DNA from: Eledone cirrhosa
Lineage: Eukaryota
Length of the DNA stretch: 64,000 bases
Direction of reading: 5' to 3'
Assembly: GCA_964016885.1 (NCBI GenBank)
Contig: OZ024740.1
Span: forward strand, 421,290,001-421,354,000
The stretch's first letter is position 1; each line of letters opens with the position of its first letter. The notes below the pieces were generated by a model, which saw nothing but the letters and a program-made list of their open reading frames with translations, was not told where the DNA came from and ran no database searches. Made by a program: the position numbers and the translations under genes. Below, piece after piece: positions 4,740 through 64,000 of this stretch.

Positions 4740-5005
4740 AACTCTATGCTGCAAAGCATGTAGTCCGACGCTCTACCGATTCTGCCAATCCATCACTCTA
4801 TAAATAATAACAATAATTGTTTCTATATTTGGCACAAGGCCAGCAATTATCCCAGTGCATTACTGGTACTTTATTTTATCGACCCCGTAAGGATGAAGGG
4901 CAAAGTTAACCTCGATGGGATTTGAACTCAGACCGTAAAGGGATGTAACTATGCTAGAAAGCATGGCGTCCAACCCTCTACCGATACTGCCAATCCACCA
5001 CCCTC
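4740..5005 (-). mobile_element. tRNA-derived SINE plus an adjacent second head fragment
   Basis: Minus strand has an A-box-like TGGCAGTATCGG and a B-box GAGTTCAAATCC, then TTTGCCCTTCATCCTTACGGGGTCGATAAAATAAAGTACCAG. The same family recurs at 19297-19665. Confidence 0.75.
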
Positions 5006-6144: not shown

Positions 6145-6164
6145 CTGAAATACAGATACATAAA

Positions 6165-22021: not shown

Positions 22022-22059
22022 CTTCTTAGTTTGATACATAATGACAAACTTTCTTGGAG
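22022..22059 (-). CDS. WDR19: WDR19/IFT144 internal coding exon (38 nt)
   Basis: ttgcag|CTC...AAG|gtgaga. Translates LQESLSLCIKLR(R). Phase 0 in, phase 2 out; both fit the neighbouring exons. Confidence 0.8.
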
Positions 22060-25212: not shown

Positions 25213-25385
25213 CTTAGTTTTTGATATTTCTGTCAGGTCCGTTTTCATCAAAAATGAAAAACATGGCAGTATCGTTGTGACTATGCGACCACTTTGGTTA
25301 AGCATGGTAACATGTCCATTATTTAGAAGGATTGGGATTTGAAAATATGGAGGCTTAGACTGATAAACCAAATCACAAATGCTTC
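25213..25385 (-). CDS. WDR19: WDR19/IFT144 internal coding exon (most 5' exon visible)
   Basis: Long pyrimidine tract then ttgcag|GA. Translates (G)SICDLVYQSKPPYFQIPILLNNGHVTMLNQSGRIVTTILPCFSFLMKTDLTEISKTK, similar to recalled vertebrate WDR19 ...KPLLLYNGELTCQTQSGKV.... Ends AAG|GCAAG (GC donor), phase 0 to the next exon. Confidence 0.8.
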
Positions 25386-25802
25386 CTGCAAAAAAGAAAA
25401 GAAAAAAAAAGAAAAATTAATAAATCAAATAAATTCTATCACTTTAAAAAGCTGTTTATACAAAGACAAAACACAGTTAAAGGGGACAAAAAGGAAAGAA
25501 AAAAAGGAAAGGAAAAGAAGAAAAAGAAAAAGAAGAACCAAACAAGAAAGAAAAGGGAAAGGGGAAGAGACAAACACAATACCCCAGTCTGAGAAAAGCC
25601 TCAGCCAAACCCTGAGGACAAAATGCAAAGGTGTTACAATGGAAAATGGCCAGAGATATATTTCTCTCCTGTGTATTGCAGTGGAGCTCAGGTTTGTGGC
25701 TCAAGTGACAAGGATGGAGGTGAAGAACAAGTCACAGGTCATTGTAAAGGAATGTTTCAATTACTAACACTGAACATTCTCATCATCCTCACCTGTTTAA
25801 TG

Positions 25803-28800
25803 TCACCTGTCACAATATTATATATCTCACCTGTCACAATATTACATATCTCACCTGTCACAATATTACATATCTCACCTGTTACAATACTATATATCTC
25901 ACCTGTCACAGTACTATATATCTCACCTGTCACAGTACTACATATCTCACCTATCACATTACTATATATCTCACCTGTCAGAATACTATATATCTCACCT
26001 GTCACAATATTACATATCACACCTGTCACAATATTACATATCTCACCTGTCACAATACTATATATCTCACCTGTCACAATATTACATATCTCACCTGTCA
26101 CAATACTATATATCTCACCTGTCACGATACTACATATCTCACCTTTCACAATACTACATATCTCACCTGTCACAATATTATATATCTCAGCTGTTACAAT
26201 ACTACATATCTCACCTGTCACAATATTATATATCTCACCTGACACAATATTACATATCTCACCTGTCACAATACTATATATCTCACCTGTCACAATACTA
26301 CATATCTCACCTGTCACAATACTACATATCTCACCTGTCACAATATTATATATCTCAGCTGTTACAATACTACATATCTCACCTGTCACAATACTACATA
26401 TCTCACCTGTCAGAATATTACATATCTCACCTGACACAATATTATATATCTCAGCTGTCACAATACTATATATCTCACCTGTCACAATATTATATATCTC
26501 ACCTGACACAATATTACATATCTCACCTGTCACAATACTATATATCTCACCTGTCACAATATTACATATCACACCTGTCACAATATTACATATCACACCT
26601 GTTACAATATTATATATCTGACCTGTCACGATACTATATATCTCACCTGTTACGATACTATATATCTCACCCATCACAATACTACATATCTCAGCTGTCA
26701 CAATACTACATATCTCATCTGTCACAATACTACATATCTCAACTGTCACAATACTACATATCTCACCTGTCACAATACTATATATCTCACCTGTCACAAT
26801 ACTATATGTCTCAGCTGTCACAATACTATATATCTCACCTGTCACAATACTATATATCTCACCTGTCACAATACTATATATCTCACATGTCACAATATTA
26901 TATATCTCACCCATCAGAATACTATATATCTCACCTGTCACAATATTACATATCTCACCTGTCACAATACAATATATCTCACCTGTCACAATACTATATA
27001 TCTCAGCTGTCACAATACTATATATCTCACCTGTCACAATACTATATATCTCACCTGTCACAATACTATATATCTCACCTGTCACAATACTATATATCTC
27101 ACCTGTCCCAATACTACATATCTCACCTGTCACAATACTACATATCTCACCTGTCACAATATTACATATCTTACCTGTCACAATACTATATATCTCACCT
27201 GTCACAATACTATATATCTCACCTGTCAGAATACTATATATCTCACCTGTCAAATTACTACATATCTCACCTGTCACAATACTATATATCTCACCTGTCA
27301 CAATACTACATATCTCACCTGTCACAATACTACATATCTCACCTGTCACAATATTACATATCTCACCTGTAACAATACTATATATCTCACCTGTCACAAT
27401 ACTACATATCTTACCTGTTACAATATTACATATCTCACCTGTCACACTATTACATATCTTACCTGTCACAATATTACATATCTCACCTGTCACAATACTA
27501 CATATCTCACCTGTCACAATATTACATGTCTCGCCTGTTACAATACTACATATCTCACCTGTCACAATACTATATATCTCACCTGTCACAATACTATATA
27601 TCTCACCTGTCACAATAATATATATCTCACCTGTCACAATACTACATATCTCACCTGTCACAATACTATATATCTCACCTGTCACAATATTATATATCTC
27701 ACCTGTCACAACACTACATATCTCACCTGTCACAATACTACATATCTCACATGTCACAATACTATATATCTCACCTGTCACAATACTACATATCTCACCT
27801 GTCACAATACTACATATCTCACCTGTCACAATATTACATATCTTACCTGTCACAATATTACATATCTCACCTGTCACAATACTACATATCTCACCTGTCA
27901 CAATATTACATGTCTCGCCCGTTACAATACTACATATCTCACCTGTCATAATACTATATATCTCACCTGTCACAATACTATATATCTCACCTGTCACAAT
28001 AATATATATCTCACCTGTCACAATACTACATATCTCACCTGTCACAATACTATATATCTCACCTGTCACAATATTATATATCTCACCTGTCACAACACTA
28101 CATATCTCACCTGTCACAATACTATATATCTCACCTGTCACAATATTACATATCTCAACTGTCACAATATTATATATCTCACCTGTCACAATACTATATA
28201 TCTCACCTGTCACAATATTATATATCTCACTTGTCACAATATTAAATATCTCACCTATCACAATACTATATATCTCACCTGTCACGATACTATATATCTC
28301 ACCTGTCACATTATTACATATCTCGCCTGTTACAATACTATATATCTCACCTGTCACAATACTATATATCTCACCTGTCACAATACTACAGGTCTCACTT
28401 GTCACAATATTACATTTCTCACCTGTCACAATATTACATATCTCACCTGTCACAATACTACATATCTCACATGTCACAATACTATATATCTCACCTGTCA
28501 CAATACTACATATCTCACCTATCACAATACTACATATCTCACCTGTCACAATATTACATATCTTACCTGTCACAATACTATATATCTCACTTGTCACAAC
28601 ATTATATATCTCACCTGTCACAATATTACATATCTCACCTGTCACAATACTACATATCACACCTGTCACAATACTATATATCTCACCTGTCACAATACTA
28701 TATATCACACCTGTCACAATACTATATATCTCACCTGTCACAATATTATATGTCTCACCTGTCACAATACTACATATCTCACCTATCACAATACTATATA

Positions 28801-31800
28801 TCTCACCTGTCACAATATTACATATCTCACCTGTCACAATATTACATATCTCAACTTTCACAATATTATATATCTCACCTGTCACAATACTATATATCTC
28901 ACCTGTCACAATATTATATGTCTCACCTGTCACAATATTACATATCTCACCTGTCACAATACTATATATCTTACCTGTCAAAATACTATATATCTCACCT
29001 GTCACAATATTACATATCTCACCTGTCACAGTATTACATATCTCACCGGTCACAATACTACATATCTCACCTGTCATAATACTACATATCTCACTTGTCA
29101 CAATACTATATATCTCACCTGTCACAATACTATATATCTCACCTGTTACAATACTATATATCTCACCTGTCACAATACTACATATCTCACTTGTCACAAT
29201 AGTACATCTCTCACCTGTCACAATACTACATATCTCGCCCGTCACAATACTATATATCTGACCTGTCAAAATACTACATACCTCACCTGTCACAATATTA
29301 CGTATCTCACCTGTCACAATATTACATATCTCGCCTGTCACAATACTACATATCTCACCTGTCACAATACTATATATTTCACCTGTCACAATATTACATA
29401 TCTCACCTGTCACAATACTATATATCTCACCTGTCACAATACTATATATCTCACCTGTCACAATACTACATACCTCACCTGTCACAATATTACAAAACTT
29501 ACCTGTGACAATATTACATATCTCACCTGTCCCAATATTACATATCTCACCTGTCACAATACTACATACCTCACCTGTCACAATACTACATATCTCACCT
29601 GTCACAATACTACATACCTCACCTGTCACAATACTACATATCTCACCTGTCGCAATACTACATACCTCACCTGTCACAATACTACATATCTCACCTGTCA
29701 CAATACTACATATCTCACCCGTCACAATACTACAGATCTCACCTGTTACAATACTATATATCTCACCTGTCACAATACTATATATCTCACCTGTCACAAT
29801 AGTACAGATCTTACCTGTTACAATACTATATATCTCACCTGTCACAATACTATATATCTCACCTGTCACAATACTATATATCTCACCTGTCACAATACTA
29901 CATATCTCACCTGTCACAATATTACATATCTCACCTGTCACAATACTACATACCTCACCTGTCACAATACTACATATTTCACCTGTCACGATACTACATA
30001 TCTCACCTGTCACAATACTATATATCTCACCTGTCACAATAGTACATCTCTCACCTGCCACAATACTACATATCTCACCTGTCACAATACTATATATCTG
30101 ACCTGTCAAAATACTACATACCTCACCTGTCACAATATTACGTATCTCACCTGTGACAATATTACACATCTCACCTGTCACAATATTACACATCTCACCT
30201 GTCACAATATTACATATCTCACATGTCACAATATTACATATCTCACCTGTCACAATACTACATACCTCACCTGTCACAATATTACATATCTCACCTGTTA
30301 CAATACTATATATCTCACCTGTCACAATACTACATACCTCACATGTCACAATATTACATATCTTACCTGTGACAATATTACATATCTCATCTGTCCCGAT
30401 ATTACATATCTCACCTGTCACAATACTACATATCTCACCTGTCACAATATTACATATCTCACCTGTGACAATACTACATACCTCACCTGTCACAATACTA
30501 CATATTTCACCTGTCACGATACTACATATCTCACCTGTCACAATACTATATATCTCACCTGTCACAATATTACATATCTCACCTGTCACAATACTATATA
30601 TCTCACCTGTCACAATACTATATATCTCACCTGTCACAATACTACATATCTCACTTGTCACAATATTACATATCTCACCTGTCACAATATTACATATCTC
30701 ACCTGTCACAATACTACATATCTCACCTGTCACAATACTATATATCTCACCTGTCACAATACTATATATCTCACCTGTCACAATACTACATATCTCACCT
30801 GTCACAATACTACATATCTCACCTGTCACAATATTACATATCTTACCTGTCACAATACTATATATCTCACCTGTCACAATACTATATATCTCACCTGTCA
30901 GAATACTATATATCTCACCTCTCAAATTACTACATATCTCACCTGTCACAATACTATATATCTCACCTCTCACAATACTACATATCTGACTTGTCACAAT
31001 ACTACATATCTCACCTGTCACAATATTACATATCTCACCTGTAACAATACTATATATCTCACCTGTCACAATACTATATATCTTACCTGTTACAATATTA
31101 TATATCTCACCTGTTACAATACTACATATCTCACCTGTCACAATATTACATATCTTACCTGTCACAATACTATATATCTCACCTGTCACAATACTACATA
31201 TCTCACATGTCACAATATTACATATCTCACCTGTCACAATATTACATATCTCACCCGTCACAATATTACATATCTCACCTGTCACAATATTACATGTCTC
31301 GCCTGTTACAATACTACATATCTCGCCTGTCACAATACTATATATCTCACCTGTAACAATACTATACATCTCACCTGTCACAATACTATATATCTCACCT
31401 GTCACAATAATATATATCTCACCTGTCACAATACTACATATCTCACCTGTCACAATATAATATATCTCACCTGTCACAATATTATATATCTCACCTGTCA
31501 CAACACTACATATCTCTCCTGTCACAATACTATATATCTCACCTGTCACAATATTACATATCTCACCTGTCACAATATTACATATCTCAACTGTCACAAT
31601 ATTATATATCTCACCTGTCACAATACTATATATCTCACCTGTCACGATACTATATATCTCACCTGTCACATTATTACATATCTCACCTGTTACAATACTA
31701 TATATCTCACCTGTCACAATACTATATATCTCACCTGTCACAATACTACATGTCTCACTTGTCACAATATTACATATCTCACCTGTCACAATATTACATA

Positions 31801-34800
31801 TCTCACCTTTCACAATACTACATATCTAACATGTCACAATACTATATATCTCACCTGTCACAATACTACATATCTCACCTGTCACAATACTACATATCTC
31901 ACCTGTCACAATATTACATATCTTACCTGTCACAATACTATATATCTCACTTGTCACAACATTATATATCTCACCTGTCACAATATTACATATCTCACCT
32001 GTCACAATACTACATATCACACCTGTCACAATACTATATATCTCACCTGTCACAATACTATATATCTCACCTGTCACAATACTATATATCACACCTGTCA
32101 CAATACTATATATCTCACTTGTCACAATTCTATATATCTCACCTGTCACAATATTATATATCTCACCTGTCACAATACTACATATCTCACCTGCCACAAT
32201 ACTATATATCTCACCTGTCACAATATTACATATCTCACCTATCACAATATTACATATCTCAACTTTCAAAATATTATATATCTCACCTGTCACAATACTA
32301 TATATCTCACCTGTCACAATACTATATATCTCACCTGTCACAATACTATATATCTCACCTGTCACAATACTATATATCTCACCTGTTACAATACTACATA
32401 TCTCACCTGTCACAATACTATATATCTCACCTGTCACAATACTATATGTCTCACCTGTCACAATATTATATATCTCACCTGTCACGATACTATATATCTC
32501 ACCTGTCACAATATTATATATCTCACCTGTCACAATATTACATAGCTCACCTGTCACAATACTATATATCTCACCTGTCACAATACTATATATCTCACCT
32601 GTTACATTACTACATATCTCACCTGTCACAATACTACATATCTCACATGTCACAATACTATATATCTCACCTGTCACAATACTACATATCTCACCTGTCA
32701 CAATAATACATATTTCACCTGTCACAATACTATATATCTCACCTGTCACTATACTACATATCTCACCTGTCACAATACTACATATCTCACCGGTCACAAT
32801 ACTACATATCTCATCTCTCACAATACTACATATCTCACCTGTCACAATATTACATATCTCACCTGTCACAATACTACATATCTCACCTCTCACAATATTA
32901 GATATCTCACCTGTCACAATACTATATATCTCACCCATCACAATACTATATATCTCACCTGTCACAATATTACATATCTCACCTGTCACAATATTATATA
33001 TTTCATCTGTCACAATACTATATATCTCACTTGTCACAATACTACATATCTCACCTGTCACAATATTACATATCTCACCTGTCACAATACTATATATCTC
33101 ACCTCTCACAATATTACATATCTCACCTGTCACAATATTACATATCTCACCCGTCACAATACTATATATCTCACCTGTCACAATACTATATATCTCACCT
33201 ATTACAATACTATATATCTCACCTGTCACAATATTATATATCTTAGCTGTCACAATATTACATATCTCACCTGTTACAATACTATATATCTCACCTGTCA
33301 CTACTATTTATCTCACCTGTCACAATACTACATATCTCACCTGTCATAATATTACATATCTCACCTGTCACAATATTACATATCTCACCTGTCACAATAC
33401 TATATTGCTCACCTGTCACAATACTACATATCTCACCTGTCACAATATTACATATCTCACCTGTCACAATACTACATATCTCACCTCTCACAATATTACA
33501 TATCTCACCTGTCACAATACTACATGTCTCACCTGTCACAATACTACATATCTCACCTGTCACAATATTACATATCTCACCTGTCACAATACTACATATT
33601 TAACATGTCACAATACTACATATCTAACATGTCACAATACTATATATCTCACCTGTCACAATACTACATATCTCACCTGTCACAATACTACATATCTCAC
33701 CTGTCACAATATTACATATCTTACCTGTCACAATACTATATATCTCACTTGTCACAACATTATATATCTCACCTGTCACAATATTACATATCTCACCTGT
33801 CACAATACTACATATCACACCTGTCACAATACTATATATCTCACCTGTCACAATACTATATATCTCACCTGTCACAATACTATGTATCTCACTTGTCACA
33901 ATTCTATAGATCTCACCTGTCACAATATTATATATCTCACCTGTCACAATACTACATATCTCACCTGCCACAATACTATATATCTCACCTGTCACAATAT
34001 TACATATCTCACCTGTCACAATATTACATATCTCAACTTTCACAATATTATATATCTCACCGGTCACAATACTATATATCTCAACTGTCACAATATTATA
34101 TATCTCACCTGTCACAATATTACATATCTTACCTGTCACAATACTATATATCTTACCTGTCACAATACTATATATCTCACCTGTCACAATACTATATATC
34201 TCACCTGTTACAATACTATATATCTCACCTGTCACAATACTACATATCTCATCTCTCACAATACTACATATCTCACCTGTCACAATATTACATATCTCAC
34301 CTGTCACAATACTACATATCTCACCTCTCACAATATTACATATCTCACCTGTCACAATACTATATATCTCACCCATCACAATACTATATATCTCACCTGT
34401 CACAATATTACATATCTCACCTGTCACAATATTATATATTTCATCTGTCACAATACTATATATCTCACTTGTCACAATACTACATATCTCACCTGTCACA
34501 ATATTACATATCTCACCTGTCACAATACTATATATCTCACCTCTCACAATATTACATATCTCACATGTCACAATATTACATATCTCACCCGTCACAATAC
34601 TATATATCTCACCTGTCACAATACTATATATCTCACCTATTACAATACTATATATCTCACCTGTCACAATATTATATATCTCAGCTGTCACAATATTACA
34701 TATCTCACCTGTTACAATACTATATATCTCACCTGTCACTACTATTTATCTCACCTGTCACAATACTACATATCTCACCAGTCATAATATTACATATCTC

Positions 34801-37800
34801 ACCTGTCACAATACTACATATCTCACCTGTCATAATATTACATATCTCACCTGTCACAATATTACATATCTCACCTGTCACAATACTATATTGCTCACCT
34901 GTCACAATACTACATATCTCACCTGTCACAATATTACATATCTCACCTGTCACAATACTACATATCTCACCTCTCACAATATTACAGATCTCACCTGTCA
35001 CAATACTACATGTCTCACCTGTCACAATACTACATATCTCACCTGTCACAATATTACATATCTCACCTGTCACAATACTACATATCTAACATGTCACAAT
35101 ATTACATATCTTACCTGTCACAATACTATATATCTTACCTGTCACAATACTATATATCTCACCTGTCACAATACTATATATCTCACCTGTTACAATACTA
35201 TATATCTCACCTGTCACAATACTACATATCTCATCTCTCACAATACTACATATCTCACCTGTCACAATATTACATATCTCACCTGTCACAATACTACATA
35301 TCTCACCTCTCACAATATTACATATCTCACCTGTCACAATACTATATATCTCACCCATCACAATACTATATATCTCACCTGTCACAATATTACATATCTC
35401 ACCTGTCACAATATTATATATTTCATCTGTCACAATACTATATATCTCACTTGTCACAATACTACATATCTCACCTGTCACAATATTACATATCTCACCT
35501 GTCACAATACTATATATCTCACCTCTCACAATATTACATATCTCACATGTCACAATATTACATATCTCACCCGTCACAATACTATATATCTCACCTGTCA
35601 CAATACTATATATCTCACCTATTACAATACTATATATCTCACCTGTCACAATATTATATATCTCAGCTGTCACAATATTACATATCTCACCTGTTACAAT
35701 ACTATATATCTCACCTGTCACTACTATTTATCTCACCTGTCACAATACTACATATCTCACCAGTCATAATATTACATATCTCACCTGTCACAATACTACA
35801 TATCTCACCTGTCATAATATTACATATCTCACCTGTCACAATATTACATATCTCACCTGTCACAATACTATATTGCTCACCTGTCACAATACTACATATC
35901 TCACCTGTCACAATATTACATATCTCACCTGTCACAATACTACATATCTCACCTCTCACAATATTACAGATCTCACCTGTCACAATACTACATGTCTCAC
36001 CTGTCACAATACTACATATCTCACCTGTCACAATATTACATATCTCACCTGTCACAATACTACATATCTAACATGTCACAATACTACATATCTAACATGT
36101 CACAATACTATATATCTCACCTGTCACAATACTACATATCTCACCTGTCACAATACTACATATCTCACCTGTCACAATATTACATATCTTACCTGTCACA
36201 ATACTATATATCTCACTTGTCACAACATTATATATCTCACCTGTCACAATATTACATATCTCACCTGTCACAATACTACATATCACACCTGTCACAATAC
36301 TATATATCTCACCTGTCACAATACTATATATCTCACCTGTCACAATACTATATATCACACCTGTCACAATACTATATATCTCACCCGTCACAATACTATA
36401 TATCTCACCTGTCACAATATTACATATCTCACCTGTCACAATATTATATATCTCATCTGTCACAATACTATATATCTCACCTGTCACAATATTACATATC
36501 TCACCTGTCACAATACTATATATCTCCCCTGTCACAATAATATATATCTCACCTGTCACAATATTACATATCTCAACTGTCACAATATTAAATATCTCAC
36601 GTGTAACAATACTACATACCTCAGCTGTCACAATATTACATATCTCACCTGTCACAATACTACATATCTGAACTGTCACGATACTACATATCTCACATGT
36701 TACAATACTATATATCTCACCTGTAACAATACTATATATCTCACCTGTCACAATACTATATATCTCACCTGTCAGAATACTACATATCTCACCTGTCAGA
36801 ATATTACATATCTCACCTGTCACAATACTATATATCTCACCTGTCACAATACTATATATCTCACCCATCACAATACTATATATCTCACCTGTCACAATAT
36901 TACATATCTCACCTGTCACAATACTATATATCTCCCCTGTCACAATAATATATATCTCACCTGTCACAATATTATATATCTCATCTGTCACAATACTATA
37001 TATCTCACCTGTCACAATATTACATATCTCACCTGTCACAATACTACATATCTCACCTGTCACAATGCTACATATGTCACCTGTCACAATATTACATATC
37101 TCAACTGTCACAATATTTAATATCTCACCTGTCACAATACTACATACCTCAGCTGTCACAATATTACATATCTCACCCGTCACAATACTATATATCTCAC
37201 CTATTACAATACTATATATCTCACCTGTCACAATATTATATATCTCAGCTGTCACAATATTACATATCTCACCTGTTACAATACTATATATCTCACTTGT
37301 CACTACTATTTATCTCACCTGTCACAATACTACATATCTCACCTGTCATAATATTACATATCTCACCTGTCACAATACTACATATCTCACCTGTCATAAT
37401 ATTACATATCTCACCTGTCACAATATTACATATCTCACCTGTCACAATACTATATTGCTCACCTGTCACAATACTACATATCTCACCTGTCACAATACTA
37501 CATATCTCACCTCTCACAATATTACATATCTCACCTGTCACAATACTACATATCTCACCTGTCACAATATTACATATCTCACCTGTCACAATACTACATA
37601 TCTCACCTGTCACAATATTATATATCTCACCTGTCACAATACTACATATCTCACCTGTCACAATACTATATATCTCACCAGTCCCAATACTACATATCTC
37701 AGCTGTCACAATATTACATATCTCACCTGTCACAATACTATATATCTCACCCGTCACAATACTATATATCTCACCTGTCACAATATTACATATCTCACCT

Positions 37801-40800
37801 GTCACAATATTATATATCTCATCTGTCACAATACTATATATCTCAGCTGTCACAATATTACATATCTCACCTGTCACAATACTATATATCTCCCCTGTCA
37901 CAAAAATATATATCTCACCTCTCACAATATTATATATCTCATCTGTCACAATACTATATATCTCACCTGTCACAATATTACATATCTCACCTGTCACAAT
38001 ACTACATATCTCACCTGTCACAATGCTACATATCTCACCTGTCACAATATTACATATCTCATCTGTCACAATATTATATATCTCATTTGTCACAATATTA
38101 CATATCTCACTGAACAGAATACTACATATCTCACCTGTCACAATACTATATATCTCACCTGTCACAATACTATACATCTCACCTGTTACAATACTATATA
38201 TCTCACCTGTCACAATACTACATATCTCACCTGTCACAATATTACATATCTCACCTGTCACAAAACTACATATCTCAACTGTCACAATACTATATAGCTC
38301 ACCTGTCACAATATTACATATCTCAACTGTCACAATATTAAATATCTCACGTGTCACAATACTACATACCTCAGCTGTCACAATATTACATATCTCACCT
38401 GTCACAATACTACATATCTCACCTGTCACGATACTACATATCTCACATGTTACAATACTATATATCTCACCTGTAACAATACTATATATCTCACCTGTCA
38501 CAATACTATATATCTCACCTGTCAGAATACTACATATCTCACCTGTCACAATATTACATATCTCACCTGTCACAATACTATATATCTCACCCATCACAAT
38601 ACTACATATCTCAGCTGTCACAATATTACATATCTCACCTGTCACAATACTATATATCACACCTGTCACAATACTATATATCTCACCCATCACAATACTA
38701 CATATCTCAGCTGTCACAATATTACATATCTCACCTGTCACAATACTATATATCTCACCCGTCACAATACTATATATCTCCCCTGTCATAATATTACATA
38801 TCTCACCTGTCACAATATTACATATCTCACCTGTCACAATACTATATTGCTCACCTGTCACAATACTACATATCTCACCTGTCACAATACTACATATATC
38901 ACCTCTCACAATATTACATATCTCACCTGTCACAATACTACATATCTCACCTGTCACAATATTACATATCACACCTGTCACAATACTACATATCTCACCT
39001 GTCACAATATTATATATCTCACCTGTCACAATACTACATATCTCACCTGTCACAATACTATATATCTCACCCGTCACAATACTATATATCTCACCTGTCA
39101 CAATATTACATATCTCACCTGTCACAATATTATATATCTCATCTGTCACAATACTATATATCTCCCCTGTCACAATAATATATATCTCACCTGTCACAAT
39201 ATTACATATCTCAACTGTCACAATATTAAATATCTCACGTGTCACAATACTACATACCTCAGCTGTCACAATATTACATATTTCACCTGTCACAATACTA
39301 CATATCTCACCTGTCACGATACTACATATCTCACATGTTACAATACTATATATCTCACCTGTAACAATACTATATATCTCACCTGTCACAATACTATATA
39401 TCTCACCTGTCAGAATACTACATATCTCACCTGTCACAATATTACATATCTCACCTGTCACAATACTATATATCTCACCTGTCACAATACTATATATCTC
39501 ACCCATCACAATACTATATATCTCACCTGTCACAATATTACATATCTCACCTGTCACAATATTATATGTTTCATCTGTCACAATACTATACATCTCACTT
39601 GTCACAATACTACATATCTCACCTGTCACAATATTATATATCTCATCTGTCACAATACTATATATCTCACCTGTCACAATATTACATATCTCACCTGTCA
39701 CAATACTATATATCTCCCCTGTCACAATAATATATATCTCACCTGTCACAATATTATATATCTCATCTGTCACAATACTGTATATCTCACCTGTCACAAT
39801 ATTACATATCTCACCTGTCACAATACTACATATCTCACCTGTCACAATGCTACATATCTCACCTGTCACAATATTACATATCTCAACTGTCACAATATTT
39901 AATATCTCACGTGTCACAATACTACATACCTCAGCTGTCACAATATTACATATCTCACCCGTCACAATACTTTATATCTCACCTGTCACAATACTATATA
40001 TCTCACCTATTACAATACTATATATCTCACCTGTCACAATATTACATATCTCACTGGTCAGAATACTACATATCTCACCTGTCACAATACTATATATCTC
40101 ACCTGTCACAATACTATACATCTCACCTGTTACAATACTATATATCTCACCTGTCACAATACTACATATCTCACCTGTCACAATATTACATATCTCACCT
40201 GTCACAAAACTACATATCTCAACTGTCACAATACTATATATCTCACCTGTCACAATATTACATATCTCAACTGTCACAATATTAAATATCTCACGTGTCA
40301 CAATACTACATACCTCAGCTGTCACAATATTACATATCTCACCTGTCACAATACTACATATCTCACCTGTCACGATACTACATATCTCACATGTTACAAT
40401 ACTATATATCTCACCTGTAACAATACTATATATCTCACCTGTCACAATACTATATATCTCACCTGTCAGAATACTACATATCTCACCTGTCACAATATTA
40501 CATATCTCACCTGTCACAATACTATATATCTCACCTGTCACAATACTATATATCTCACCCATCACAATACTACATATCTCAGCTGTTACAATATTACATA
40601 TCTCACCTGTCAAAATACTATATATCTCACCTGTCACAATACTATATATCTCACCCATCACAATACTACATATCTCAGCTGTCACAATATTACATATCTC
40701 ACCTGTCACAATACTATATATCTCACCCGTCACAATACTATATATCTCACCTGTCATAATATTACATATCTCACCTGTCACAATATTACATATCTCACCT

Positions 40801-49800: not shown

Positions 49801-52800
49801 ATTACATATCTCACCTGTCACAATACTATATATCTTACCTGTCACAATACTATATATCTCACCCATCACAATACTATATATCTCACCTGTCACAATATTA
49901 CATATCTCACCTGTCACAATATTACATATCTCACCTGTCACAATATTATATGTTTCATCTGTCACAATACTATACATCTCACTTGTCACAAAACTACATA
50001 TCTCAACTGTCACAATACTATATATCTCACCTGTCACAATATTACATATCTCAACTGTCACAATATTATATGTTTCATCTGTCACAATACTATACATCTC
50101 ACTTGTCACAATACTACATATCTCACCTGTCACAATATTATATATCTCACCTGTCACAAAACTACATATCTCAACTGTCACAATACTATATATCTCACCT
50201 GTCACAATATTACATATCTCAACTGTCACAATATTAAATATCTCACGTGTCACAATACTACATACCTCAGCTGTCACAATATTACATATCTCACCTGTCA
50301 CAATACTACATATCTCACCTGTCACGATACTACATATCTCACATGTTACAATACTATATATCTCACCTGTAACAATACTATATATCTCACCTGTCACAAT
50401 ACTATATATCTCACCTGTCAGAATACTACATATCTCACCTGTCACAATATTACATATCTCACCTGTCACAATACTATATATCTCACCTGTCACAATACTA
50501 TATATCTCACCCATCACAATACTACATATCTCAGCTGTCACAATTTTACATATCTCACCTGTCACAATACTATATATCTCACCTGTCACAATACTATATA
50601 TCTCACCCATCACAATACTACATATCTCAGCTGTCACAATATTACATATCTCACCTGTCACAATACTATATATCTCACCCGTCACAATACTATATATCTC
50701 ACCTGTCATAATATTACATATCTCACCTGTCACAATATTACATATCTCACCTGTCACAATACTATATTGCTCACCTGTCACAATACTACATATCTCACCT
50801 GTCACAATACTACATATATCACCTCTCACAATATTACATATCTCACCTGTCACAATACTACATATCTCACCTGTCACAATACTACATATCTCACCTGTCA
50901 CAATATTACATATCTCACCTGTCACAATACTACATATCTCACCTGTCACAATATTATATATCTCACCTGTCACAATACTACATATCTCACCTGTCACAAT
51001 ACTATATATCTCACCGGTCCCAATACTACATATCTCAGCTGTCACAATATTACATATCTCACCTGTCACAATACTATATATCTCACCCGTCACAATACTA
51101 TATATCTCACCTGTCACAATATTACATGTCTCACCTGTCACAATATTATATATCTCATCTGTCAGAATACTATATATCTCCCCTGTCACAATAATATATA
51201 TCTCACCTGTCACAATATTACATATCTCAACTGTCACAATATTAAATATCTCACGTGTCACAATACTACATACCTCAGCTGTCACAATATTACATATCTC
51301 ACCTGTCACAATACTAAATATCTCACCTGTCACGATACTACATATCTCACATGTTACAATACTATATATCTCACCTGTAACAATACTATATATCTCACCT
51401 GTCACAATACTATATATCTCACCTGTCACAATACTATATATCTCACCCATCACAATACTATATATCTCACCTGTCACAATATTACATATCTCACCTGTCA
51501 CAATATTATATGTTTCATCTGTCACAATACTATACATCTCACTTGTCACAATACTACATATCTCACCTGTCACAATATTATATATCTCATCTGTCACAAT
51601 ACTATATATCTCACCTTTCATAATATTACATATCTCACCGGTCACAATACTATATATCTCCCCTGTCACAATAATATATATCTCACCTGTCACAATATTA
51701 TATATCTCATCTGTCACAATACTATATATCTCACCTGTCACAATATTACATATCTCACCTGTCACAATTCTACATATCTCACCTGTCACAATGCTACATA
51801 TATCACCTGTCACAATATTACATATCTCAACTGTCACAATATTTAATATCTCACGTGTCACAATACTACATATCTCAGCTGTCACAATATTACATATATC
51901 ACCCGTCACAATACTATATATCTCACCTGTCACAATACTATATATCTCACCTATTACAATACTATATATCTCACCTGTCACAATATTATATATCTCAGCT
52001 GTCACAATATTACATATCTCACCTGTTACAATACTATATATCTCACCTGTCACTACTATTTATCTCACCTGTCACAATACTACATATCTCACCTGTCATA
52101 ATATTACATATCTCACCTGTCACAATACTACATATCTCACCTGTCATAATATTACATATCTCACCTGTCACAATACTATATATCTCCCCTGTCACAATAA
52201 TATATATCTCACCTGTCACAATATTACATATCTCAACTGTCACAATATTAAATATCTCACGTGTCACAATACTTCATACCTCAGCTGTCACAATATTACA
52301 TATCTCACCTGTCACAATACTACATATCTCACCTGTCACGATACTACATATCTCACATGTTACAATACTATATATCTCACCTGTAACAATACTATATATC
52401 TCACCTGTCACAATACTATATATCTCACCTGTCAGAATACTACATATCTCACCTGTCACAATATTACATATCTCACCTGTCACAATACTATATATCTCAC
52501 CTGTCACAATACTATATATCTCACCCATCACAATACTATATATCTCACCTGTCACAATATTACATATCTCACCTGTCACAATATTATATGTTTCATCTGT
52601 CACAATACTATACATCTCACTTGTCACAATACTACATATCTCACCTGTCACAATATTATATATCTCATCTGTCACAATACTATATATCTCACCTGTCACA
52701 ATATTACATATCTCACCTGTCACAATACTATATATCTCCCCTGTCACAATAATATATATCTCACCTGTCACAATATTATATATCTCATCTGTCACAATAC

Positions 52801-55800
52801 TATATATCTCACCTGTCACAATATTACATATCTCACCTGTCACAATACTACATATCTCACCTGTCACAATGCTACATATCTCACCTGTCACAATATTACA
52901 TATCTCAACTGTCACAATATTTAATATCTCACGTGTCACAATACTACATACCTCAGCTGTCACAATATTACATATCTCACCCGTCACAATACTATATATC
53001 TCACCTGTCACAATACTATATATCTCACCTATTACAATACTATATATCTCACCTGTCACAATATTACATATCTCACCTGTCACAATACTATATATCTCAC
53101 CTGTCACAATACTATATATCTCACCTGTCACAATACTACATATCTCACCTGTCACAATATTACATATCTCACCTGTCACAAAACTACATATCTCAACTGT
53201 CACAATACTATATATCTCACCTGTCACAATATTACATATCTCAACTGTCACAATATTAAATATCTCACGTGTCACAATACTACATACCTCAGCTGTCACA
53301 ATATTACATATCTCACCTGTCACAATACTACATATCTCACCTGTCACGATACTACATATCTCACATGTTACAATACTATATATCACACCTGTAACAATAC
53401 TATATATCTCACCTGTCAGAATACTATATATCTCACCTGTCAGAATACTACATATCTCACCTGTCACAATATTACATATCTCACCTGTCACAATACTATA
53501 TATCTCACCTCTCACAATACTATATATCTCACCCATCACAATACTATATATCTCACCTGTCACAATATTACATATCTCACCTGTCACAATATTATATGTT
53601 TCATCTGTCACAATACTATAAATCTCACTTGTCACAATACTACATATCTCACCTGTCACAATATTATATATCTCATCTGTCACAATACTATATATCTCAC
53701 CTGTCACAATATTACATATCTCACCTGTCACAATACTATATATCTCCCCTGTCACAATAATATATATCTCATCTGTCACAATACTATATATCTCACCTGT
53801 CACAATATTACATATCTCACCTGTCACAATACTACATATCTCACCTGTCACAATGCTACATATCTCACCTGTCACAATATTACATATCTCAACTGTCACA
53901 ATATTTAATATCTCACGTGTCACAATACTACATACCTCAGCTGTCACAATATTACATATCTCACCCGTCACAATACTATATATCTCACCTGTCACAATAC
54001 TATATATCTCACCTATTACAATATTACATATCTCACTGGTCAGAATACTACATATCTCACCTGTCACAATACTATATATCTCACCTGTCACAATACTATA
54101 CATCTCACCTGTTACAATACTATATATCTCACCTGTCACAATACTACATATCTCACCTGTCACAATATTACATATCTCACCTGTCACAAAACTACATATC
54201 TCAACTGTCACAATAATATATATCTCACCTGTCACAATATTACATATCTCAACTGTCACAATATTAAATATCTCACGTGTCACAATACTACATACCTCAG
54301 CTGTCACAATATTACATATCTCACCTGTCACAATACTAAATATCTCACCTGTCACGATACTACATATCTCACATGTTACAATACTATATATCTCACCTGT
54401 AACAATACTATATATCTCACCTGTCACAATACTATATATCTCACCTGTCACAATACTATATATCTCACCCATCACAATACTATATATCTCACCTGTCACA
54501 ATATTACATATCTCACCTGTCACAATATTATATGTTTCATCTGTCACAATACTATACATCTCACTTGTCACAATACTACATATCTCACCTGTCACAATAT
54601 TATATATCTCATCTGTCACAATACTATATATCTCACCTGTCACAATATTACATATCTCACCTGTCACAATACTATATATCTCCCCTGTCACAATAATATA
54701 TATCTCACCTGTCACAATATTATATATCTCATCTGTCACAATACTATATATCTCACCTGTCACAATATTACATATCTCACCTGTCACAATACTACATATC
54801 TCACCTGTCACAATGCTACATATATCACCTGTCACAATATTACATATCTCAACTGTCACAATATTGAATATCTCACGTGTCACAATACTACATACCTCAG
54901 CTGTCACAATATTACATATCTCACCCGTCACAATACTATATATCTCACCTGTCACAATACTATATATCTCACCTATTACAATACTATATATCTCACCTGT
55001 CACAATATTATATATCTCAGCTGTCACAATATTACATATCTCACCTGTTACAATACTATATATCTCACCTGTCACTACTATTTATCTCACCTGTCACAAT
55101 ACTACATATCTCACCTGTCATAATATTACATATCTCACCTGTCACAATACTACATATCTCACCTGTCATAATATTACATATCTCACCTGTCACAATATTA
55201 CAAATCTCACCTGTCAGAATACTATATTGCTCACCTGTCACAATACTACATATCTCACCTGTCACAATATTACATATCTCACCTCTCACAATATTACATA
55301 TCTCACCTGTCACAATACTACATATCTCACCTGTCACAATATTACATATCTCACCTGTCACAATACTACATATCTCACCTGTCACAATATTATATATCTC
55401 ACCTGTCACAATACTACATATCTCACCTGTCACAATACTATATATCTCACCGGTCCCAATACTACATATCTCAGCTGTCACAATATTACATATCTCACCT
55501 GTCACAATACTATATATCTCACCCGTCACAATACTATATATCTCACCTGTCACAATATTACATATCTCACCTGTCACAATATTATATATCTCATCTGTCA
55601 CAATACTATATATCTCAGCTGTCACAATATTACATATCTCACCCGTCACAATACTATATATCTCCCCTGTCACAAAAATATATATCTCACCTCTCACAAT
55701 ATTATATATCTCATCTGTCACAATACTATATATCTCACCTGTCACAATATTACATATCTCACCTGTCACAATACTACATATCTCACCTGTCACAATGCTA

Positions 55801-58800
55801 CATATCTCACCTGTCACAATATTACATATCTCATCTGTCACAATATTATATATCTCATTTGTCACAATATTACATATCTCACTGGTCAGAATACTACATA
55901 TCTCACCTGTCACAAAACTATATATCTCACCTGTCACAATACTATACATCTCACCTGTTACAATACTATATATCTCACCTGTCACAATACTACATATCTC
56001 ACCTGTCACAATATTACATATCTCACCTGTCACAAAACTACATATCTCAACTGTCACAATACTATATATCTCACCTGTCACAATATTACATATCTCACCT
56101 GTCACAATACTACATATCTCACCTGTCACGATACTACATATCTCACATGTTACAATACTATATATCTCACCTGTAACAATACTATATATCTCACCTGTCA
56201 CAATACTATATATCTCACCTGTCAGAATACTACATATCTCACCTGTCACAATATTACATATCTCACCTGTCACAATACTATATATCTCACCTGTCACAAT
56301 ACTATATATCTCACCCATCACAATACTACATATCTCAGCTGTCACAATATTACATATCTCACCTGTCACAATACTATATATCTCACCTGTCACAATACTA
56401 TATTGCTCACCTGTCACAATACTACATATCTCACCTGTCACAATACTACATATATCACCTCTCACAATATTACATATCTCACCTGTCACAATACTACATA
56501 TCTCACCTGTCACAATACTACATATCTCACCTGTCACAATATTACATATCTCACCTGTCACAATACTACATATCTCACCTGTCACAATATTATATATCTC
56601 ACCTGTCACAATACTACATATCTCACCTGTCACAATACTATATATCTCACCGGTCCCAATACTACATATCTCAGCTGTCACAATATTACATATCTCACCT
56701 GTCACAATACTATATATCTCACCCGTCACAATACTATATATCTCACCCGTCACAATATTACATATCTCACCTGTCACAATATTATATATCTCATCTGTCA
56801 GAATACTATATATCTCCCCTGTCACAATAATATATATCTCACCTGTCACAATATTACATATCTCAACTGTCACAATATTAAATATCTCACGTGTCACAAT
56901 ACTACATACCTCAGCTGTCACAATATTACATATCTCACCTGTCACAATACTAAATATCTCACCTGTCACGATACTACATATCTCACATGTTACAATACTA
57001 TATATCTCACCTGTAACAATACTATATATCTCACCTGTCACAATACTATATATCTCACCTGTCACAATACTATATATCTCACCCATCACAATACTATATA
57101 TCTCACCTGTCACAATATTACATATCTCACCTGTCACAATATTATATATCTCATCTGTCACAATACTATATATCTCACCTTTCACAATATTACATATCTC
57201 ACCGGTCACAATACTATATATCTCGCCTGTCACAATAATATATATCTCACCTGTCACAATATTATATATCTCATCTGTCACAATACTATATATCTCACCT
57301 GTCACAATATTACATATCTCACCTGTCACAATACTACATATCTCACCTGTCACAATGCTACATATATCACCTGTCACAATATTACATATCTCAACTGTCA
57401 CAATATTTAATATCTCACGTGTCACAATACTACATATCTCAGCTGTCACAATATTACATATATCACCCGTCACAATACTATATATCTCACCTGTCACAAT
57501 ACTATATATCTCACCTATTACAATACTATATATCTCACCTGTCACAATATTATATATCTCAGCTGTCACAATATTACATATCTCACCTGTTACAATACTA
57601 TATATCTCACCTGTCACTACTATTTATCTCACCTGTCACAATACTACATATCTCACCTGTCATAATATTACATATCTCACCTGTCACAATACTACATATC
57701 TCACCTGTCATAATATTACATATCTCACCTGTCACAATACTATATATCTCCCCTGTCACAATAATATATATCTCACCTGTCACAATATTACATATCTCAA
57801 CTGTCACAATATTAAATATCTCACGTGTCACAATACTTCATACCTCAGCTGTCACAATATTACATATCTCACCTGTCACAATACTACATATCTCACCTGT
57901 CACGATACTACATATCTCACATGTTACAATACTATATATCTCACCTGTAACAATACTATATATCTCACCTGTCACAATACTATATATCTCACCTGTCAGA
58001 ATACTACATATCTCACCTGTCACAATATTACATATCTCACCTGTCACAATACTATATATCTTACCTGTCACAATACTATATATCTCACCCATCACAATAC
58101 TATATATCTCACCTGTCACAATATTACATATCTCACCTGTCACAATATTACATATCTCACCTGTCACAATATTATATGTTTCATCTGTCACAATACTATA
58201 CATCTCACTTGTCACAAAACTACATATCTCAACTGTCACAATACTATATATCTCACCTGTCACAATATTACATATCTCAACTGTCACAATATTATATGTT
58301 TCATCTGTCACAATACTATACATCTCACTTGTCACAATACTACATATCTCACCTGTCACAATATTATATATCTCACCTGTCACAAAACTACATATCTCAA
58401 CTGTCACAATACTATATATCTCACCTGTCACAATATTACATATCTCAACTGTCACAATATTAAATATCTCACGTGTCACAATACTACATACCTCAGCTGT
58501 CACAATATTACATATCTCACCTGTCACAATACTACATATCTCACCTGTCACGATACTACATATCTCACATGTTACAATACTATATATCTCACCTGTAACA
58601 ATACTATATATCTCACCTGTCACAATACTATATATCTCACCTGTCAGAATACTACATATCTCACCTGTCACAATATTACATATCTCACCTGTCACAATAC
58701 TATATATCTCACCTGTCACAATACTATATATCTCACCCATCACAATACTACATATCTCAGCTGTCACAATTTTACATATCTCACCTGTCACAATACTATA

Positions 58801-61800
58801 TATCTCACCTGTCACAATACTATATATCTCACCCATCACAATACTACATATCTCAGCTGTCACAATATTACATATCTCACCTGTCACAATACTATATATC
58901 TCACCCGTCACAATACTATATATCTCACCTGTCATAATATTACATATCTCACCTGTCACAATATTACATATCTCACCTGTCACAATACTATATTGCTCAC
59001 CTGTCACAATACTACATATCTCACCTGTCACAATACTACATATATCACCTCTCACAATATTACATATCTCACCTGTCACAATACTACATATCTCACCTGT
59101 CACAATACTACATATCTCACCTGTCACAATATTACATATCTCACCTGTCACAATACTACATATCTCACCTGTCACAATATTATATATCTCACCTGTCACA
59201 ATACTACATATCTCACCTGTCACAATACTATATATCTCACCGGTCCCAATACTACATATCTCAGCTGTCACAATATTACATATCTCACCTGTCACAATAC
59301 TATATATCTCACCCGTCACAATACTATATATCTCACCTGTCACAATATTACATGTCTCACCTGTCACAATATTATATATCTCATCTGTCAGAATACTATA
59401 TATCTCCCCTGTCACAATAATATATATCTCACCTGTCACAATATTACATATCTCAACTGTCACAATATTAAATATCTCACGTGTCACAATACTACATACC
59501 TCAGCTGTCACAATATTACATATCTCACCTGTCACAATACTAAATATCTCACCTGTCACGATACTACATATCTCACATGTTACAATACTATATATCTCAC
59601 CTGTAACAATACTATATATCTCACCTGTCACAATACTATATATCTCACCTGTCACAATACTATATATCTCACCCATCACAATACTATATATCTCACCTGT
59701 CACAATATTACATATCTCACCTGTCACAATATTATATGTTTCATCTGTCACAATACTATACATCTCACTTGTCACAATACTACATATCTCACCTGTCACA
59801 ATATTATATATCTCATCTGTCACAATACTATATATCTCACCTTTCATAATATTACATATCTCACCGGTCACAATACTATATATCTCCCCTGTCACAATAA
59901 TATATATCTCACCTGTCACAATATTATATATCTCATCTGTCACAATACTATATATCTCACCTGTCACAATATTACATATCTCACCTGTCACAATTCTACA
60001 TATCTCACCTGTCACAATGCTACATATATCACCTGTCACAATATTACATATCTCAACTGTCACAATATTTAATATCTCACGTGTCACAATACTACATATC
60101 TCAGCTGTCACAATATTACATATATCACCCGTCACAATACTATATATCTCACCTGTCACAATACTATATATCTCACCTATTACAATACTATATATCTCAC
60201 CTGTCACAATATTATATATCTCAGCTGTCACAATATTACATATCTCACCTGTTACAATACTATATATCTCACCTGTCACTACTATTTATCTCACCTGTCA
60301 CAATACTACATATCTCACCTGTCATAATATTACATATCTCACCTGTCACAATACTACATATCTCACCTGTCATAATATTACATATCTCACCTGTCACAAT
60401 ACTATATATCTCCCCTGTCACAATAATATATATCTCACCTGTCACAATATTACATATCTCAACTGTCACAATATTAAATATCTCACGTGTCACAATACTT
60501 CATACCTCAGCTGTCACAATATTACATATCTCACCTGTCACAATACTACATATCTCACCTGTCACGATACTACATATCTCACATGTTACAATACTATATA
60601 TCTCACCTGTAACAATACTATATATCTCACCTGTCACAATACTATATATCTCACCTGTCAGAATACTACATATCTCACCTGTCACAATATTACATATCTC
60701 ACCTGTCACAATACTATATATCTCACCTGTCACAATACTATATATCTCACCCATCACAATACTATATATCTCACCTGTCACAATATTACATATCTCACCT
60801 GTCACAATATTATATGTTTCATCTGTCACAATACTATACATCTCACTTGTCACAATACTACATATCTCACCTGTCACAATATTATATATCTCATCTGTCA
60901 CAATACTATATATCTCACCTGTCACAATATTACATATCTCACCTGTCACAATACTATATATCTCCCCTGTCACAATAATATATATCTCACCTGTCACAAT
61001 ATTATATATCTCATCTGTCACAATACTATATATCTCACCTGTCACAATATTACATATCTCACCTGTCACAATACTACATATCTCACCTGTCACAATGCTA
61101 CATATCTCACCTGTCACAATATTACATATCTCAACTGTCACAATATTTAATATCTCACGTGTCACAATACTACATACCTCAGCTGTCACAATATTACATA
61201 TCTCACCCGTCACAATACTATATATCTCACCTGTCACAATACTATATATCTCACCTATTACAATACTATATATCTCACCTGTCACAATATTACATATCTC
61301 ACCTGTCACAATACTATATATCTCACCTGTCACAATACTATATATCTCACCTGTCACAATACTACATATCTCACCTGTCACAATATTACATATCTCACCT
61401 GTCACAAAACTACATATCTCAACTGTCACAATACTATATATCTCACCTGTCACAATATTACATATCTCAACTGTCACAATATTAAATATCTCACGTGTCA
61501 CAATACTACATACCTCAGCTGTCACAATATTACATATCTCACCTGTCACAATACTACATATCTCACCTGTCACGATACTACATATCTCACATGTTACAAT
61601 ACTATATATCTCACCTGTAACAATACTATATATCTCACCTGTCACAATACTATATATCTCACCTGTCAGAATACTACATATCTCACCTGTCACAATATTA
61701 CATATCTCACCTGTCACAATACTATATATCTCACCTGTCACAATACTATATATCTCACCCATCACAATACTACATATCTCAGCTGTTACAATATTACATA

Positions 61801-64000
61801 TCTCACCTGTCACAATACTATATATCTCACCTGTCACAATACTATATATCTCACCCATCACAATACTACATATCTCAGCTGTCACAATATTACATATCTC
61901 ACCTGTCACAATACTATATATCTCACCCGTCACAATACTATATATCTCACCTGTCATAATATTACATATCTCACCTGTCACAATATTACATATCTCACCT
62001 GTCACAATACTATATTTCTCACCTGTCACAATACTACATATCTCACCTGTCACAATACTACATATATCACCTCTCACAATACTACATATCTCACCTGTCA
62101 CAATACTACATATCTCACCTGTCACAATATTACATATCTCACCTGTCACAATACTACATATCTCACCTGTCACAATATTATATATCTCACCTGTCACGAT
62201 ACTACATATCTCACCTGTCACAATACTATATATCTCACCGGTCCCAATACTACATATCTCAGCTGTCACAATATTACATATCTCACCTGTCACAATACTA
62301 TATATCTCACCCGTCACAATACCATATATCTCACCTGTCACAATATTACATATCTCACCTGTCACAATATTATATATCTCATCTGTCACAATACTATATA
62401 TCTCACCTGTCACAATATTACATATCTCACCTGTCACAATACTATATATCTCCCCTGTCACAATAATATATATCTCACCTGTCACAATATTACATATCTC
62501 AACTGTCACAATATTAAATATCTCACGTGTCACAATACTACATACCTCAGCTGTCACAATATTACATATCTCACCTGTCACAATACTAAATATCTCACCT
62601 GTCACGATACTACATATCTCACATGTTACAATACTATATATCTCACCTGTAACAATACTATATATCTCACCTGTCACAATACTATATATCTCACCTGTCA
62701 CAATACTATATATCTCACCCATCACAATACTATATATCTCACCTGTCACAATATTACATATCTCACCTGTCACAATATTATATGTTTCATCTGTCACAAT
62801 ACTATACATCTCACTTGTCACAATACTACATATCTCACATGTCACAATATTATATATCTCATCTGTCACAATACTATATATCTCACCTGTCACAATATTA
62901 CATATCTCACCTGTCACAATACTATATATCTCCCCTATCACAATAATATATATCTCACCTGTCACAATATTATATATCTCATCTGTCACAATACTATATA
63001 TCTCACCTGTCACAATATTACATATCTCACCTGTCACAATACTACATATCTCACCTGTCACAATGCTACATATATCACCTGTCACAATATTACATATCTC
63101 AACTGTCACAATATTTAATATCTCACGTGTCACAATACTACATATCTCAGCTGTCACAATATTACATATCTCACCCGTCACAATACTATATATCTCACCT
63201 GTCACAATACTATATATCTCACCTATTACAATACTATATATCTCACCTGTCACAATATTATATATCTCAGCTGTCACAATATTACATATCTCACCTGTTA
63301 CAATACTATATATCTCACCTGTCACTACTATTTATCTCACCTGTCACAATACTACATATCCCACCTGTCATAATATTACATATCTCACCTGTCACAATAC
63401 TACATATCTCACCTGTCATAATATTACATATCTCACCTGTCACAATATTACATATCTCACCTGTCACAATACTATATTGCTCACCTGTCACAATACTACA
63501 TATCTCACCTGTCACAATACTACATATCTCACCTCTCACAATATTACATATCTCACCTGTCACAATACTACATATCTCACCTGTCACAATATTACATATC
63601 TCACCTGTCACAATACTACATATCTCACCTGTCACAATATTATATATCTCACCTGTCACAATACTATATATCTCACCTGTCACAATACTATATATCTCAC
63701 TTGTCACAATTCTATATATCTCACCTGTCACAATATTATATATCTCACCTGTCACAATACTACATATCTCACCTGCCACAATACTATATATCTCACCTGT
63801 CACAATATTACATATCTCACCTGTCACAATATTACATATCTCAACTTTCACAATATTATATATCTCACCGGTCACAATACTATATATCTCAACTGTCACA
63901 ATATTATATATCTCACCTGTCACAATATTACATATCTCACCTGTCACAATACTATATATCTTACCTGTCACAATACTATATATCTCACCTGTCACAATAT
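25803..64000. repeat. Giant 24-bp satellite, consensus TCTCACCTGTCACAATAYTAYATA, >38 kb and ~1590 units, inferred intronic in WDR19; runs off the window
   Basis: Uninterrupted tandem repetition with no inserted elements. It lies upstream of a mid-gene WDR19 exon, so the earlier exons must lie beyond it. Confidence 0.98.

Follow-up and report, generated by a model that had tools for sequence, protein, structure and literature searches.

A giant intronic array of donor-like repeats in the WDR19 gene of Eledone cirrhosa, probably a neutrally expanded and tolerated minisatellite

Introduction

An intron of WDR19 in the octopod Eledone cirrhosa is filled almost completely by a tandem array of a 24-nt unit that carries a strong 5′ splice site on the sense strand of the gene. 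The array is probably a single-locus minisatellite of pseudo-donors that was expanded neutrally and is tolerated by its host, and the intron would probably be removed in one step from the real donor. The initial annotation of this DNA had proposed that the array acts as a platform for the loading of U1 or as a decoy, or else as a ladder for stepwise splicing. These functional readings are not supported by the conservation of the motif, by the orientation of comparable arrays or by the acceptor features of the repeat.

The Array and Its Host Gene

The window, i.e., the whole stretch of 64,000 nt that was analysed, contains the 3′ third of the array. The features on which the analysis rests are the following.

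25803..64000, minus strand: 24-nt minisatellite, window part (3′ third) of the array, with a donor-like 9-mer on the WDR19 sense strand
25386..25802, minus strand: 3′ unique end of the host intron, 417 nt, including a long run rich in pyrimidines; the real acceptor AG occupies 25387-25386
25213..25385, minus strand: WDR19 exon 3′ of the array (homologue residues 606-663, approximately), with a GC donor at its end
22022..22059, minus strand: WDR19 exon of 38 nt with the real donor AAG|GTGAGAT, which has 9 nt in common with the repeat unit
L010:6462-6528, outside the window: WDR19 exon 5′ of the array, with the real donor AAG|GTGAGT

The structural part of the initial annotation is borne out. 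The 24-nt array at 25803-64000 is recovered by Tandem Repeats Finder (TRF) as a 24-nt period from 25803 to 63999 with 1592.6 copies in the window, and the minus-strand unit reads as had been given, with polymorphism at +10 and +13. The acceptor lies at 25386/25385, the match of AG|GTGAGAT to the donor of exon 22022-22059 is found at 22021, and the upstream WDR19 exons are indeed situated on the far side of the array. WDR19 is a single, intact gene on the minus strand in which 34 introns could be placed; one of its exons, of 72 residues, shows 88% identity to an Octopus protein and 81% to a WD repeat-containing 19-like protein of Argonauta.

Beyond the window, the array continues for 86 kb and ends at G000:C1:421440434 (window-extended position 150434). 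Over its full length it is gapless and comprises 124,632 nt or about 5,200 copies, with 5,177 phased units, and it covers all except 444 nt of a host intron of 125,076 nt. The unique flanks of the array measure just 27 nt to the real donor and 417 nt to the real acceptor; thus, the giant size of the intron is made by the array itself. Two in-frame stops occupy positions +6 to +11 of the real donor, the intron reading Gly-Glu-stop-stop, and the first array donor is located 35 nt past the real one. Higher-order periodicity is weak, the best lags being 631 and 343 units at about 10%. A search of the 3.0-Gb genome with patterns of 35 and 18 nt revealed the unit at no second locus, all 1,543 matches of the former and all 2,611 matches of the latter being inside the array.

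Number and Strength of the Repeated Donor

The unit is a strong 5′ splice site, somewhat weaker than the real donor of the host intron. According to a matrix built from the 34 real donors of WDR19 alone, the array donor scores 9.4 and the real host donor 10.9 when the latter is kept out of the matrix; unit scores are 9.4-9.7, and the median of the real WDR19 donors is 6.8. With the host donor included in the matrix, one out of 16,203 GT sites of the intron equals the real donor score. Pairing of the unit with U1 would involve seven Watson-Crick pairs and one wobble pair. The predicted duplex of -11.1 kcal/mol is better than that of 33 of the 34 real donors, while -11.5 kcal/mol is predicted for the host donor.

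Up to about 1,600 strong motifs had been counted for the window. Strong donors are in fact abundant there, with 1,172 sites scoring at least 8, but the exact 9-mer CAGGTGAGA is present in only 972 of the 1,591 phased window units. In the whole array, two thirds of the units (3,440 of 5,177) contain the exact 9-mer and 4,510 have an intact GT, and across the 125-kb intron 4,016 sites score at least 8, which is about 32 per kb. A seed as donor-like as this is uncommon; it was encountered in 9 of 2,661 ordinary intronic 24-mers and in 2% of shuffled units.

Splicing across the Array

Evidence on the transcript comes from sequencing run X4, the kind of which is not on record and which was counted as RNA because two of its contigs are spliced. 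One of these (161 nt, depth 2.4) bridges the entire array, from the real donor to the acceptor at 25385; the other connects 25213 to 22059. That the spliceosome must ignore more than a thousand decoy donors had been anticipated; it has to pass over thousands of donor-like sites, and the first contig demonstrates that it is able to do so. Junctions from array donors were not found in this run, compared with one contig for the canonical junction, at a depth (2.4) that is too low for rare junctions to be expected. The array itself is likewise uncovered in X4, and neither absence counts as evidence. Runs X5 and X7 of organism C yielded short chance matches only. Splicing of an array donor to 25385 would leave premature stops in the transcript, because the in-frame Gly-Glu-stop-stop precedes the array.

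Comparison with Known Repeats

In the human genes F7, 6-16, CBS, lamin B2, and PDGF, minisatellites repeat a donor into the intron, and the first donor is used, sometimes together with the next two, according to the available account of these repeats (PMC1557585). One counterpart is the 37-bp VNTR of F7 IVS7, where the real donor is followed by functional-looking pseudo-donors and the most upstream donor is the one in use (PMC1557585). As in these cases, the WDR19 array lies at the 5′ side of its intron with a donor in the repeated unit. F7-type minisatellites, as described there, consist of 5-25 units, the first of which extends across the exon-intron boundary (PMC1557585), whereas the first unit of the 24-mer does not reach the boundary and its donor differs from the real one (CAG|GTGAGA versus AAG|GTGAGT). 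A 49-mer array elsewhere in WDR19 corresponds exactly to the boundary-spanning F7 type, unlike the 24-mer array. Derivation of the unit from the real host donor is unproven, the likeness beyond a 7-nt core having a P value of 0.58 and ranking 8-10 (tied) among 34 donor flanks.

A second counterpart is the VNTR in intron 18 of ABCA7, which shares with the WDR19 array a unit of similar length (25 versus 24 nt), the location at the 5′ start of the intron, a donor in each unit, and a premature stop upon use of a unit donor (PMC5954066). The parts of this report at hand describe up to 427 copies and a widely varying length; the second donor is used to some extent, and long alleles skip the next exon more often (PMC5954066). 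The ABCA7 VNTR has the real donor at its start and a maximum of 427 units (10.7 kb), whereas the WDR19 array begins 27 nt past the donor and, with about 5,200 units (124.6 kb), is about 12 times longer (PMC5954066). By analogy, the array would be functionally akin to the F7 and ABCA7 repeats, from which it differs by its scale and in not being shown to derive from the boundary.

Tandem repeats also generate giant introns in the ciliary or flagellar genes kl-3 and kl-5 of Drosophila; these are of megabase scale and Y-linked in the accounts available, unlike the WDR19 array (PMC6508621, PMC11207136). In the main texts of mostly non-subscription papers, no octopod or cephalopod report of the array or of donor-bearing intronic satellites was found.

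Variation of the Motif and the Array of a Relative

The donor motif is not kept by selection-like conservation in the WDR19 array and decays freely. G+1 varies in 11.1% of the 5,177 units, which is the highest value among the 22 non-polymorphic positions, followed by G-5 (8.5%) and G-1 (7.9%). GT is lost in 667 and AG|GT is intact in 3,881 of the 5,177 units. The initial annotation had suggested a comparison of variant rates inside and outside the 9-mer; bearing in mind that the units are copies of one another and variant counts are therefore not independent events, mean variation at non-polymorphic positions is 4.6% inside versus 2.5% outside, hence no motif-specific conservation is seen. Random sets of positions are seldom as variable as the 9-mer (P=0.047), and rare haplotypes follow the same order, with 16.6 (inside) versus 12.2 (outside) per position. 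The two common polymorphic positions are correctly described as lying outside the motif, which is no more than chance would provide (P=0.38 for both of them missing a 9-mer). Loss of GT is uneven along the array, with about 4% among the 1,600 units nearest the donor (5′ 38 kb) versus 16-21% in units 2,000-4,800; the array may consist of two domains of amplification, or the motif may have been retained close to the donor.

In a relative (run X3), one contig of 342 nt spans the exon and enters the same repeat. The first unit is altered there at -3, +1, and +3, including the loss of G+1, and the stop behind the donor is retained. The summed repeat depth of the relative is 670-1,090 versus 15-16 in unique DNA, while in two runs of the own species repeat and unique depth are about 41,000 versus 7.4 and 64,000 versus 9.2. 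With contig depth as a rough guide to copy number, the relative likely possesses tens of units, since the depth ratio of the own species is close to the assembled count, and the expansion is likely recent.

Other Intronic Arrays and Satellites Sharing the Core

Giant arrays without donors are common and tolerated in WDR19 and in other genes. WDR19 itself contains 27 intronic arrays, which make up 239 of 296 kb of intron (81%). Five others of more than 5 kb (including those of 36, 32, 17, and 13 kb) are devoid of a strong donor, and two small ones are copies of real donors. Donor-free introns of this gene include those with 64-, 31- and 48-mers. A survey of 1.196 Mb from nine dynein heavy-chain genes yielded 148 arrays, two of which, of 86 kb and 20 kb, have no strong donors. 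Donors scoring at least 8 were found on the sense strand in three and on the antisense strand in six of the 148 arrays; for scores of at least 6.8 the numbers are nine and eleven. A sense-strand bias, for which a test had been suggested in the initial annotation, is thus not seen for the donors of these 148 other intronic arrays. Arrays of at least 3 kb are G-rich on the sense strand in 10 of 12 cases (p=0.039, with the threshold set after the data had been seen).

A 13-nt core of the unit recurs elsewhere, being present in 1 of the 148 surveyed units versus 0 of 44,400 shuffles; most core-sharing satellites were found by searching for the core itself. Among the surveyed units, a 44-mer on the antisense strand of a dynein gene shares 14 nt with the WDR19 unit. 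A 51-mer with 669 copies forms a 34-kb array on the sense strand in an intron of an MROH-type gene (Pfam HEAT_Maestro, E 7e-08), with 644 exact copies of the same 9-mer and the motif intact in 518 of 542 anchored units. A small 38-mer array lies in sense orientation in TPK1 (E 0.00028, below the cut-off). A further array with the core, a 39-mer (C3), measures at least 43 kb, and a family of 52-mers shares the core but reads CAG|CT, and thus lacks a donor; it occupies at least nine loci, with about 260 kb at one of them. For the last two, 12 of the candidate exons were scanned with no Pfam match below E 0.07 and no hosts were found, and they were left out of the orientation count. Among the core-sharing arrays with a host, WDR19 included, three are sense and one is antisense (one-sided P=5/16), which is too few to decide. 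Kinship of the WDR19 unit with the other core satellites was considered and is not supported, there being no significant likeness beyond the core (P 0.22-1.0).

Most Probable Scenario and Alternatives

The array would have grown from a short ancestral repeat whose unit happened to contain a strong 5′ splice site, and slippage and unequal exchange would have inflated it, as would hold for many introns in the genome. The real donor, which also scores higher, would be favoured by exon definition and by the rule, known from human F7, that the most upstream donor is used. If the first array donors were used now and then, the two in-frame stops would stay in the transcript, and nonsense-mediated decay would clear it. 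As its AGs lack acceptor context, the array would be poor at forming pseudo-exons or ratchet points, and its lone donors would be harmless. As a side effect, U1 would probably bind some of the units on nascent RNA. In this scenario, general principles of exon definition, of nonsense-mediated decay, and of growth by slippage are transferred to the WDR19 array. Against neutral expansion stand the single contig of low depth, the rarity of the seed (0.3-2%), the uneven loss of GT, and the sense arrays in MROH and TPK1.

It is conceivable, albeit unlikely, that the side effect is larger, the nascent intron loading U1 snRNP at thousands of unpaired donors, forming a locus-bound body, and slowing or skewing WDR19 splicing with array length. 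The model for this is chicken LL2R (lumpy loop 2), which carries slightly more than 5 donors per 2 kb and to which snRNPs are recruited, as far as the available text of that report goes (bioRxiv 10.64898/2026.03.19.712899). Both are transcribed tandem arrays with many donors and few acceptors and poly(A) signals, and the 4,016 strong sites of the WDR19 intron, with almost no usable acceptors and no AATAAA, amount to the same imbalance (bioRxiv 10.64898/2026.03.19.712899). The increased skipping of the next exon in long ABCA7 alleles (PMC5954066) and the second such array in MROH point in this direction as well. LL2R is described as a non-coding transcription unit of its own, whereas the WDR19 array resides in the intron of a protein gene, with donors more than 10 times denser and with a recruitment of snRNPs that is only putative. 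Canonical splicing does happen in WDR19, however, and the motif decays freely. Furthermore, compared with the U1 pool of the cell, a single locus with its few nascent transcripts takes up little.

A broader form of this idea, which appears quite unlikely, is that octopod genomes have a class of giant satellites in introns with a CAG|GTGAGATATA core (WDR19, 125 kb; MROH, 34 kb; both sense). Their nascent transcripts would take up U1 snRNPs by the hundreds to thousands, gather splicing factors into bodies bound to the locus within ordinary protein genes, and tune the output of their hosts by repeat length. The core-sharing arrays are the best support for the earlier functional reading, and their largest member has no donor.

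A selected platform, whose donors would be maintained because they prevent premature cleavage and polyadenylation or assist elongation through the giant intron, is very improbable. Its strong donors are on the sense strand and better kept in the 5′ 38 kb, and the core-sharing arrays are predominantly sense (3:1), among them both giant ones; a sense strand rich in G is, though, a general tendency of large arrays. The whole 125-kb intron contains no AATAAA and 30 ATTAAA, in comparison with 49 AATAAA in 34.8 kb of short introns, hence there is no AATAAA to suppress, and the reach of telescripting, as stated in the accessible part of the source, is about 0.5-1 kb from the poly(A) signals that it suppresses (PMC5499120). 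The array has the U1-pairing sites that telescripting would use, on the basis of predicted pairing, but not the nearby cryptic poly(A) signals. Moreover, as the intron without the array would be 444 nt long, the array creates the very length it is proposed to solve, and giant arrays devoid of donors are tolerated.

Removal of the intron in steps, with AG|GT junctions acting as acceptor and then as donor, is hardly credible. The array does contain 4,040 AG|GT sites within a long intron, a likeness to recursive and dual-specific sites (PMC6110457, PMC10809524). In the acceptor matrix they have a median of 2.3 and overlap the 6 weakest of the 34 real acceptors (at most 1.4); the first of them follows a T-run and scores 7.1. 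If a unit of 24 nt were retained, it would preserve the frame and introduce no stop in 5,062 of 5,092 cases, and tandem dual-specific sites are in use in UBC (PMC10809524, as far as available). The lack of a polypyrimidine acceptor context, already remarked upon in the initial annotation, is nevertheless pronounced: all 34 real WDR19 acceptors have an AG-free zone of at least 18 nt and at least 8 pyrimidines at -18 to -4, and 2 of the 4,040 array sites combine both features. A YTRAY motif at -45 to -15 accompanies 134 of the 4,040 array sites versus 17 of the 34 real acceptors, and AG|GT is intact in only three quarters of the units (see above). With the first array site 35 nt from the real donor, the distance is too short for an intron. 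Recursive sites of flies are conserved and mostly more than 1 kb apart in the material available (PMC6110457), whereas the array sites have no acceptor context, no conservation, and a spacing of 24 nt.

Scarcely probable, finally, is a motif acting at the DNA level, i.e., that the core of the unit, which is taken here to be an E-box (CANNTG), or another protein-binding site favours expansion or binds a factor, with the donor likeness as a by-product: the two most variable motif positions (-1 and +1) are the NN of CANNTG, the E-box is intact in 4,486 of 5,177 units versus 3,881 for AG|GT, and the core, with GT or lacking it, is found again in other satellites and more often than in shuffles, but G:G steps may simply mutate more, there is no likeness beyond the core, and most of the core satellites were retrieved by means of the core.

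Significance

The WDR19 array provides no evidence of a new splicing mechanism. It constitutes the largest intron front-loaded with pseudo-donors that was found, with about 4,000 strong sites versus 427 units in the longest ABCA7 allele in the accounts available. As such, it puts to an extreme natural test both the first-donor rule and the question of whether U1 sites left unpaired on nascent RNA have any effect. Controls are built in, namely the donor-free giant arrays in WDR19, the relative with its probably short array, and the GT-less sister satellite. For the octopod genome, it is an instance of introns that enlarge through locus-specific minisatellites.

Arrays at WDR19 Splice Sites

Within WDR19, the following features of the minus strand are considered, where window-extended positions carry the window numbering on beyond position 64000.
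Window-extended 176449-178179 (L013), minus strand: array of 35 tandem 49-nt units
Contig C1 near 421268428 (L053), minus strand: array of 4.5 tandem 55-nt units, directly behind another WDR19 donor
Window 25212-22060, minus strand: GC-AG intron, covered by a spliced contig

Unit 1 of the 49-nt array includes the final 32 nt of a WDR19 exon together with the real donor of that exon; this array is a true boundary minisatellite of the F7 type, which is named after the human gene and has a first unit spanning a real exon-intron boundary. GTGAGTGT is retained in 33 of the 35 units and the real exon end in eight, and AATAAA occurs eight times within the array. The units of the 55-nt array are similar to the adjoining WDR19 donor and its flank, three of them containing CAG|GTAAGA.

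Six of 27 WDR19 arrays start or stop within 10-42 nt of a splice site, with examples at window 6160-9914, in L011 (41-mer), and in L013 (16-mer). The GC-AG intron is confirmed by the spliced contig. Decayed fragments resembling, by eye, reverse-transcriptase sequence of non-LTR retrotransposons are present in introns at window 1000-3700 and 10820-12150.

Satellites at Other Loci

Three further satellites lie at other loci of the Eledone cirrhosa genome.
C17:15195134-15229267 (L179-L182), sense strand of a MROH/Maestro-type gene: 51-nt array of 669 units
C3 from 370631472 (L187-L190, L199): 39-nt array of at least 43 kb
C10:41.46-41.73 Mb, also C1, C4, C6, C8, and C9: multilocus 52-nt satellite family

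In the C17 array, CAGGTGAGA occurs 644 times in the sense orientation of the gene, and AATAAA is absent; the closest exon predicted upstream of the array is roughly 3.5 kb away. CAG|GTGAG is found in about three quarters of the C3 units; no host gene was found within 30 kb upstream. The 52-nt family is related to the C17 51-mer, with CAG|CT replacing the donor.

Strand Composition

At C19:6.71-6.80 Mb, a dynein heavy-chain gene region is present twice, inverted and with almost equal scores, which is either a recent duplication or an assembly artefact.

Across WDR19 and nine dynein heavy-chain regions, 10 of 12 arrays of at least 3 kb are G-rich on the sense strand, and no such trend is seen below 500 nt (57 of 116 arrays), the length threshold of this comparison having been picked post hoc. 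The sense-strand G-richness of the large arrays might originate from R-loop-linked expansion.
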